From assembly GCA_031292375.1 (NCBI GenBank), contig JARLHF010000004.1:479-64478 (forward strand): 64,000 nt of DNA. The letters run 5' to 3'. Shown here piece after piece: positions 59,515 through 59,601 of the stretch. Under the pieces are notes generated by a model. The model saw only the letters and a program-made list of their open reading frames with translations, was not told the DNA's origin and did no database searches. Every line of letters begins with the position of its first letter. Positions within the stretch are counted from its first letter, which is position 1. This stretch comes from Chlamydiales bacterium. GTDB lineage: Bacteria > Chlamydiota > Chlamydiia > Chlamydiales > VFKH01. The translations under genes and the position numbers were made by a program.

Positions 59515-59601
59515 TTAGACTTCCTGCATATACACAAACAAGTTCAAGAATTGTTTGTGTATAATTAGCTTTACTTATATAATTATGCAAGAAGTCTATT
59601 A
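59515..59601. mobile_element. Composite repeat: internally deleted MITE-like element (copy E) carrying an inserted 35-bp palindromic element (59529-59563)
   Basis: TTAGACTTCCTGCA-TA-[TACACAAACAAGTTCAAGAATTGTTTGTGTA]-TA-ATTAGCTTTACTTATATAATTATGCAAGAAGTCTATTA. Confidence 0.75.

Follow-up and report, generated by a model that had tools for sequence, protein, structure and literature searches.

A 31-bp palindrome probably nested in the terminal repeat of an IS5-derived mini-MITE of a chlamydia-like bacterium

The Correia/NEMIS elements of Neisseria are small TA-flanked intergenic elements of 100-155 bp; they have repeats of 26 bp and contain an IHF site, and their inverted ends are able to supply promoter elements. 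We know of no TA duplication as a signature of SDR, the palindromic repeats of 21-27 nt in cyanobacteria, whose mobility was reportedly inferred by Elhai and co-workers, in Genome Res in 2008, partly from their nesting in other repeats. In the pneumococcus, the RUP (repeat unit of pneumococcus) is a MITE of 107 bp whose mobilisation is ascribed to IS630-Spn1, and it has been reported to insert preferentially into other insertion sequences and, where it inserts into IS elements, to prevent their recognition by the transposase (PMC2229807). REP and REPIN sequences are extragenic palindromes of 20-40 bp and inverted doublets of these, thought to be mobile with RAYT (PMC3733652, PMC3116915), and a GTAG or CGTC tag defines the REP superfamilies (PMC3733652).

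The palindrome described here belongs to this well-known class of bacterial MITEs and small palindromic mobile repeats, and is notable for its tiny size and for its host among the Chlamydiae. At 31 bp it comes close to the minimum size for a transposable unit, and its nested copy shows that it has moved in an uncultured chlamydia-like bacterium, of which a 64-kb stretch of DNA (the window, from whose first base all positions are counted) was analysed. Like RUP it is non-coding, has inverted ends and is inserted at TA, and its landing in an IS5-derived MITE parallels the RUP preference; however, RUP has about three times its length and carries repeats that match a resident IS630 member, whereas no partner IS was found for the palindrome in our searches. 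It differs from Correia/NEMIS in occurring in another phylum and in having no sequence similarity to them. Its very small size and its nesting in another repeat recall SDR, but both the sequence and the phylum are different. We consider it probable, though well short of certain, that the locus at 59514-59600 is a composite of two unrelated non-autonomous transposable elements, in which the palindrome nested later in an IS5-derived mini-MITE and a TA was duplicated.

The composite reads gATT-AGACTTCCTGCA-TA-[TACACAAACAAGTTCAAGAATTGTTTGTGTA]-TA-ATTAGCTTTACTTATATAATTATGCAAGAAGTCT-ATTaaag or, resolved further, ATT / AGACTTCCTGCA / TA / TACACAAACAA GTTCAAGAA TTGTTTGTGTA / TA / ATTAGCTTTACTTATATAATTATGCAAGAAGTCT / ATT. 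The ATT at 59514-59516 is the left copy of a 3-bp target duplication of the host mini-MITE, as judged from the ATT found on both sides of all window copies, and the ATT at 59598-59600 is the right copy, identified from the sequence and a census of flanks. Between them, the sequence, a terminus search and an alignment place the outer 12 bp of the left terminal inverted repeat of the host, AGACTTCCTGCA, at 59517-59528 (plus strand). The first copy of the duplicated TA follows at 59529-59530, within the host terminus GCA-TA-ATTA (sequence, census of termini and alignment), and then the 31-bp palindrome at 59531-59561 (plus strand), with 11-bp arms TACACAAACAA and TTGTTTGTGTA around GTTCAAGAA, an exact pattern match expected 0 times by chance. 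The second TA is at 59562-59563 (sequence and alignment). The remainder of the host at 59564-59597 (plus strand; sequence, terminus search and alignment) consists of the inner left end ATTAGCTTTACTTA, a deletion junction and the right terminal repeat TAATTATGCAAGAAGTCT.

The host at 59517-59597 is thus a mini-MITE of 48 bp, with only about 29 and 19 bp left of its two ends, that is broken after its base 12 by TA, the palindrome and TA. The original prediction had described it as a minimal derivative made of two termini, which agrees with our reading, and had given its size as about 52 bp, which has to be corrected to 48 bp without the insert, plus 3 bp of ATT on each side. On our reading the locus would have arisen in two steps. 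The 48-bp IS5-family derivative, with its two termini back to back, would have entered the intergenic DNA between a hydrolase gene and a phosphoribosyltransferase (PRT) gene with duplication of ATT, and later the palindrome would have entered its left terminal repeat at GCA^TA^ATTA with duplication of TA. The insertion probably immobilises this host copy, since it cuts the left terminal repeat in two, 12 bp in from the tip, which would prevent recognition by an IS5-family transposase. It would be a natural case of one selfish element disabling another by splitting its terminal repeat.

The evidence for nesting comes from comparison with uninterrupted termini. With up to 3 mismatches allowed, the host terminus TAGACTTCTTGCATAATTAGC is matched 8 times in the window, where 0 matches are expected, and excising 33 bp from the composite leaves an intact host terminus as in 8 other window termini; the claim that removal of 31 bp and one TA restores the terminus is therefore upheld by the sequence. 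It is upheld likewise by MAFFT: when the composite is aligned to 7 other window termini together with a mini-copy from a metagenome, the insert appears as a single clean gap of 33 columns with conserved columns on either side, and the predicted nested insertion has the layout described for it. Among the 165 terminus-like sites listed from the window and the metagenome loci, GC[A/G]TAATTA is read by 148, the others being point substitutions, and GCATATACAC... is read by the window composite and no other site. The only other match with TATA, at locus L086, is without the TA-GAC tip and hence not a terminus. A natural TATA variant of the terminus, which had been named in advance as the observation that would speak against an insertion, thus occurs nowhere among the 165 sites listed except in the composite itself. 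The insertion is measured here against paralogous empty sites, with one TA in the 148 listed termini versus TA-element-TA in the composite. A protein search of the collections for an orthologous empty site found none, the nearest PRT homologue being 63% identical. A nested insertion is the cheapest proof that a repeat has moved where a related strain lacking it is not at hand.

The same comparison bears on the thought that the composite is an artefact of assembly, or an ancestral form of the host MITE in which the palindrome was present from the start. In favour of this, short-read contigs do break within the palindrome and none spans the whole insert. Against this, the left junction was recovered in Logan assembly SRR23300985 and the right junction in SRR23300978, which are independent short-read assemblies, and although both contigs stop within the palindrome, recovery of both junctions in separate runs means that the composite is not an artefact of the window assembly. 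As for an ancestral variant, the palindrome is in none of the approximately 164 other host termini listed, and it occurs elsewhere independently of the host. We regard either version as extremely improbable. Exact-protein look-ups with four window genes retrieved contigs of one population only (runs SRR233009xx), with no polymorphism at the repeats; these contigs either broke at the repeats or ran through them.

The original prediction had also held that a TA was duplicated, and this is supported, with one caveat. Because TA is self-complementary and extends the palindrome, the 33 inserted bases can be framed in two ways at this locus, and a duplication is not separable here from a duplication-free unit of 33 bp. 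In its favour are the single TA of the uninterrupted termini and a copy of the palindrome in another genome (JABDCW01, locus L014), a single observation, that is flanked by CA/CA. Such a non-palindromic direct repeat is not predicted by a TA carried on the element, and it therefore favours a true 2-bp duplication.

A duplication-free 33-bp unit with its own TA would be expected if the palindrome were a REP-like hairpin, moved in single-stranded form by an HUH tyrosine transposase (IS200/IS605/RAYT). Its tiny size (31-35 bp) would suit such a mechanism, as would the strength of its hairpin, the 35-nt DNA hairpin at 59531 having a predicted folding energy of -10.7 kcal/mol (z = -5.7), and the 33-bp net gain is compatible with the absence of a duplication. 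The inverted doublet at 13728-13796 resembles a REPIN, and no DDE partner was found in the approximately 1 Mb examined. However, the GTAG and CGTC tags by which REP sequences are recognised (PMC3733652) are absent from the element and from its flanks TATACACAAACAAGTTCAAGAATTGTTTGTGTATA, and the window palindromes at issue are perfect and not bulged; the copy at 59531 differs in both respects from REP, which are tagged and imperfect. The CA/CA copy is better explained by duplication, and no RAYT gene was seen in a non-exhaustive screen of the ORFs within these 64 kb of the genome. On balance a REP-like origin seems unlikely to us, and we retain a duplicated TA target as the preferred reading.

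The host was traced to a family of larger elements. Three full-length copies of 162 bp with ATT on both sides were found by the terminus search and the flank census, at 14853-15014 and 26557-26718 on the plus strand and, in the opposite orientation, at 53178-53339 on the minus strand; the terminus search also found a copy at 1-148 (plus strand) that is truncated by the window edge and has ATT on its right flank. A metagenome search with the 19-nt host terminus returned at least 120 loci. Among the matches listed, the 19-nt termini bound MITEs of about 50-310 bp, with few intermediates (432 and 700 bp), and about a dozen elements of 939-970 bp share the same termini; a mini-copy comparable to the one at 59517-59597 lies in L091 at 6641-6689 (GAC...GTC register). 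Elements of about 943 bp with exact host termini, which range from about 939 to 950 bp, contain two overlapping ORFs, orfA with a match to HTH_Tnp_4 (PF13613, 60 bits) and orfB with a match to DDE_Tnp_4 (PF13359, 76 bits). The model NF033581 'IS5 family transposase' is matched by orfA at 78 bits and by orfB at 124 bits, in complementary halves of the model, and neither alone reaches its whole-protein cut-off of 140 bits. Relatives of the transposase genes that are 66-70% identical were found on plasmids by tblastn. The match on a Legionella anisa plasmid carries the annotation 'IS5 family transposase', and the match on a Rhabdochlamydia porcellionis plasmid (66% identity), where no feature is annotated, belongs to a copy that ends ...GCAAGAGATCT|ATT.

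The MITE and the IS have in common the 19-bp repeat and a subterminal TTTGCT motif. The bases outside GAC among the 165 termini listed are A (158), N, T (163) and A (160), and 38 of the 51 complete elements listed carry the same N at their two ends (ATT 21, AAT 13, ACT 3, AGT 1); in the window, ATT flanks all five host copies, the composite included. The matching of N on the two sides, also where it is C or G, establishes a 3-bp A-N-T target duplication, with AGAC...GTCT as the element proper. The host is therefore an IS5-family-derived MITE that duplicates 3-bp ANT, and not an element of the TA-duplicating IS630 type. It resembles IS5-family elements of the NF033581 type in its 19-bp termini, its subterminal TTTGCT and its short 3-bp duplication, but differs from full elements in that the copy at 59517-59597 is reduced to the two stretches of its ends. 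Two other registers were considered and rejected: a 5-bp TANTA duplication, given that position -5 is unconserved, and a TA duplication with a target preference for ANTANT, given that the same N stands on both sides in 38 of the 51 elements listed.

Some IS5-family copies are enlarged, to 1.0-1.6 kb. In those at L141:52-1065, L128:154-1671 and L068:125-1759 the repeats enclose a passenger ORF of the PD-(D/E)XK nuclease family, and a profile scan of one of these ORFs gave PF13366 PDDEXK_3 at 127 bits. A further enlarged copy, of 1.44 kb, is at L092:46-1486, and the PD-(D/E)XK ORF is absent from its ORF list.

The palindrome itself is dispersed in the window. An 11-N9-11 pattern search gave 2 exact matches, at 13730 and 59531, versus 0 in 100 shuffled sequences, and with decayed copies and remnants there are at least 6 (13730, 13763, 15078, 44630, 53439 and 59531). 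The second perfect copy, an exact pattern match at 13730-13760 (plus strand), has the loop GTTCAGGAA and TA/TA flanks. Next to it, sequence and folding identify an inverted copy at 13763-13794 (minus strand) with one arm decayed, which has the middle TA in common with the first; the tandem inverted copies at 13728-13796 fold as one 69-nt DNA hairpin (-24.7 kcal/mol, z = -10) and are REPIN-like. The other three were found by repeat search. At 15078-15095 (minus strand) there is a partial copy in which TATA follows the loop and a single arm, and a full-length host MITE lies 63 bp away; at 44630-44658 (plus strand) there is a decayed copy with the left arm and loop intact and the right arm eroded. 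The copy at 53439-53470 (plus strand) has a 1-bp insertion and TA/TA flanks, with a host MITE 99 bp away; with its TA flanks (53437-53472) it adjoins the 3' end of a tRNA gene on the minus strand (53473-53546). Every window copy is intergenic, and the similarity between copies ends right outside the flanking TA, the farther flanks being unrelated. With perfect 11-bp inverted ends in 31 bp, no coding capacity and dispersed copies, the palindrome has the properties of a MITE. That it has been mobile, as had been predicted, follows from its discrete gain at a TA within a repeat and from the dispersed intact and decayed copies.

A possible remnant of a palindrome arm, TACATAAACAA, is seen at 53141, beyond the host MITE at 53178-53339 when viewed from the copy at 53439-53470. 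The remnants at 13777-13803 and 15078-15104 share 27 nt, CTTGAACTTGTTTGTGTATAT[C/A]TGCTA, that extend 5-7 nt past the TA, and each is followed by a start codon at a distance of about 35-40 nt, that of bioY in one case and that of the gene at 15127 in the other. This sharing could reflect a sub-family whose end is longer, or a common promoter-like module.

A pattern scan of a genome collection found the palindrome arms in three other Chlamydiae MAGs as well. CAWCVY01 has the loop CCTGAAGAA three times, plus one variant, the loops of JABDCW01 include CTTCAAGAG, CTTTTGAAG and CTCTTGATA, and OY970369.1 has one copy; flanks are TA/TA in most copies across these MAGs. Relatives in loci L039 and L043 have stems of 14-16 bp and loops of 3-4 nt. 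The loops are alike within a genome and different between genomes, which fits amplification from a local master copy and not a conserved operator.

This distribution is relevant to the alternative that the palindrome is a selected site, either bound by a protein (an 11-N9-11 operator, CIRCE-like) or acting as an RNA hairpin (a terminator or processing signal), which came to lie in the MITE by recombination or gene conversion. The 11-bp arms are identical in the four chlamydial genomes, but arm identity between genomes was fixed by the search pattern and is hence no evidence of selection, and the variation of loops between genomes, together with their constancy within each, points to master-copy amplification. 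The intergenic position of all copies, some of them just past genes or a tRNA, would suit a functional site, and so would the two copies 35-40 nt upstream of start codons with their 27 nt in common. Decayed and half copies are nevertheless present, there is neither a T-run terminator nor an Rfam family, and a gain of 33 bp with TA on each side inside a repeat is a typical signature of transposition. A role as terminator cannot apply at 59531, because both neighbouring genes diverge from it. We hold a selected site to be very unlikely, and transposition of the palindrome remains the reading that we follow.

In 3 of the 5 window palindrome loci the palindrome and a host MITE have an intergenic region in common. 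In JABDCW01 the palindrome twice adjoins, in opposite orientations, the tip of another TA-flanked MITE of about 160 bp (L014 and L041), copies of which are at L041:5941-6104, L041:6174-6337 and L014:5877-6040 and have the terminal repeat TACCGAAGGTGGTTCAAAAGTTG. The window loci and these abutments, small as the numbers are, hint that the palindrome lands in or beside other elements, and nesting of small elements, as the data suggest, is widespread in related Chlamydiae genomes.

Several other repeats were noted during this comparison. Positions 13-23 of the JABDCW01 MITE repeat, TTCAAAAGTTG, resemble the inner part of the palindrome, TTCAAGAGTTG. GC-rich CGTGCCCGTGCCC arrays sit inside IS5-type MITE copies of related Chlamydiae MAGs, and related loci are rich in other palindromic or MITE-like repeats (L012:1891-2071, L012:6499-7139 and L024:6777-6861 in CAWCVY01; L009:2832-2996 in JABDCW01). 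At least 8 contigs of the Omnitrophota MAG JACQRA01 (L003, L007, L008, L018, L020, L029, L035 and L036) carry a different palindrome family, GGGG-ACACAAACAAATTT..AAATTTGTTTGTGT-CCCC, with the core ACACAAACAA in common, and the GGGG/CCCC-flanked family occurs also in a Planctomycetales MAG (L038). Bacillaceae loci L010, L021, L025 and L044 have CCAGG-flanked hairpins with the ACACAAACAA core.

With regard to the enzyme, the palindrome would have been moved in trans by a DDE transposase, through a staggered 2-bp cut of the target and strand transfer, in what may have been a cut-and-paste or a copy-in reaction. The candidate that we judge most likely is a transposase of the TA-specific IS630/Tc1-mariner type, for which ISY100 and RUP (PMC2229807) are bacterial precedents. 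The palindrome was inserted at TA and is bounded by duplicated TA, as in elements of the IS630 type, a feature that is not exclusive to IS630/Tc1-mariner. Neither the window nor about 170 loci (approximately 1 Mb) nor a viral collection yielded an autonomous element with TACACAAACAA termini; searches with the arms across the loci gave single chance arms only, and blastn against plasmids gave chance matches only. The link to IS630/mariner made in the original prediction was accordingly not supported by these searches, which covered approximately 1 Mb, and IS630/Tc1-mariner stands as a candidate attribution drawn from the TA duplication. One pair of ends, at 13727 and 15098, lies 1.37 kb apart and was considered as an IS630-sized element with a nested host MITE; it was rejected, as it encloses BioY and YchJ-like genes and no transposase. 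The palindrome looks like a minimal deletion derivative of a larger element, with two ends of 11-14 bp back to back, just as the host is of an IS5 element. It defines a minimal substrate, two 11-14-bp ends and a TA, with which the responsible transposase could be looked for or tested.

The composite lies within a divergent intergenic region of 177 bp. On one side, at 58789-59439 on the minus strand, is a gene for an alpha/beta hydrolase of the dienelactone hydrolase family (PF01738, 23.9 bits versus a cut-off of 21), and on the other, at 59617-60270 on the plus strand, the PRT gene (PF00156, 69 bits); the predicted position between divergent hydrolase and phosphoribosyltransferase genes is thus confirmed by strands and domain matches. 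A TATAAT read from the sequence at 59560-59565 (plus strand) spans the junction of palindrome, TA and host and faces the PRT gene, and a second one, at 59578-59583 (plus strand), lies at the internal deletion junction of the host and faces the same gene. The insertion junction converts ...TTGCATAATTAGC to ...TGTGTATAATTAGC, that is, CATAAT to a perfect TATAAT, and the PRT ATG (59617) lies about 50 nt downstream of it. A consensus scan of 59380-59680 found neither a complete sigma-70 -35/-10 pair nor an intrinsic terminator, so that a promoter role of either TATAAT for the PRT gene is speculative. If this TATAAT were used, it would be an instance of promoter birth by MITE insertion. Rfam matches were tRNAs only in the window and at chance level at the composite locus.

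Tentatively, and with more doubt than confidence, we propose that the TA-flanked palindromes of 31-32 bp may constitute an undescribed ultra-small mobile family of several environmental Chlamydiae. Its members would consist of two transposase-binding ends placed back to back, would tend to land inside or directly next to other MITEs, and would carry outward-facing TGTGTATA(TA/AT) boxes of the -10 type that may act as portable promoters. Literature searches on MITEs in Chlamydiae returned no paper focused on the subject. The nested insertion leaves the current understanding of transposition unchanged.

Two tandem coding repeats were observed elsewhere in the window. The ORF at 10552-11739 (minus strand) contains repeated units of about 144 nt at 10999-11571, and in the ORF at 56025-57266 the repeated units, at 56999-57127, are rich in lysine and alanine and measure about 30-48 nt.
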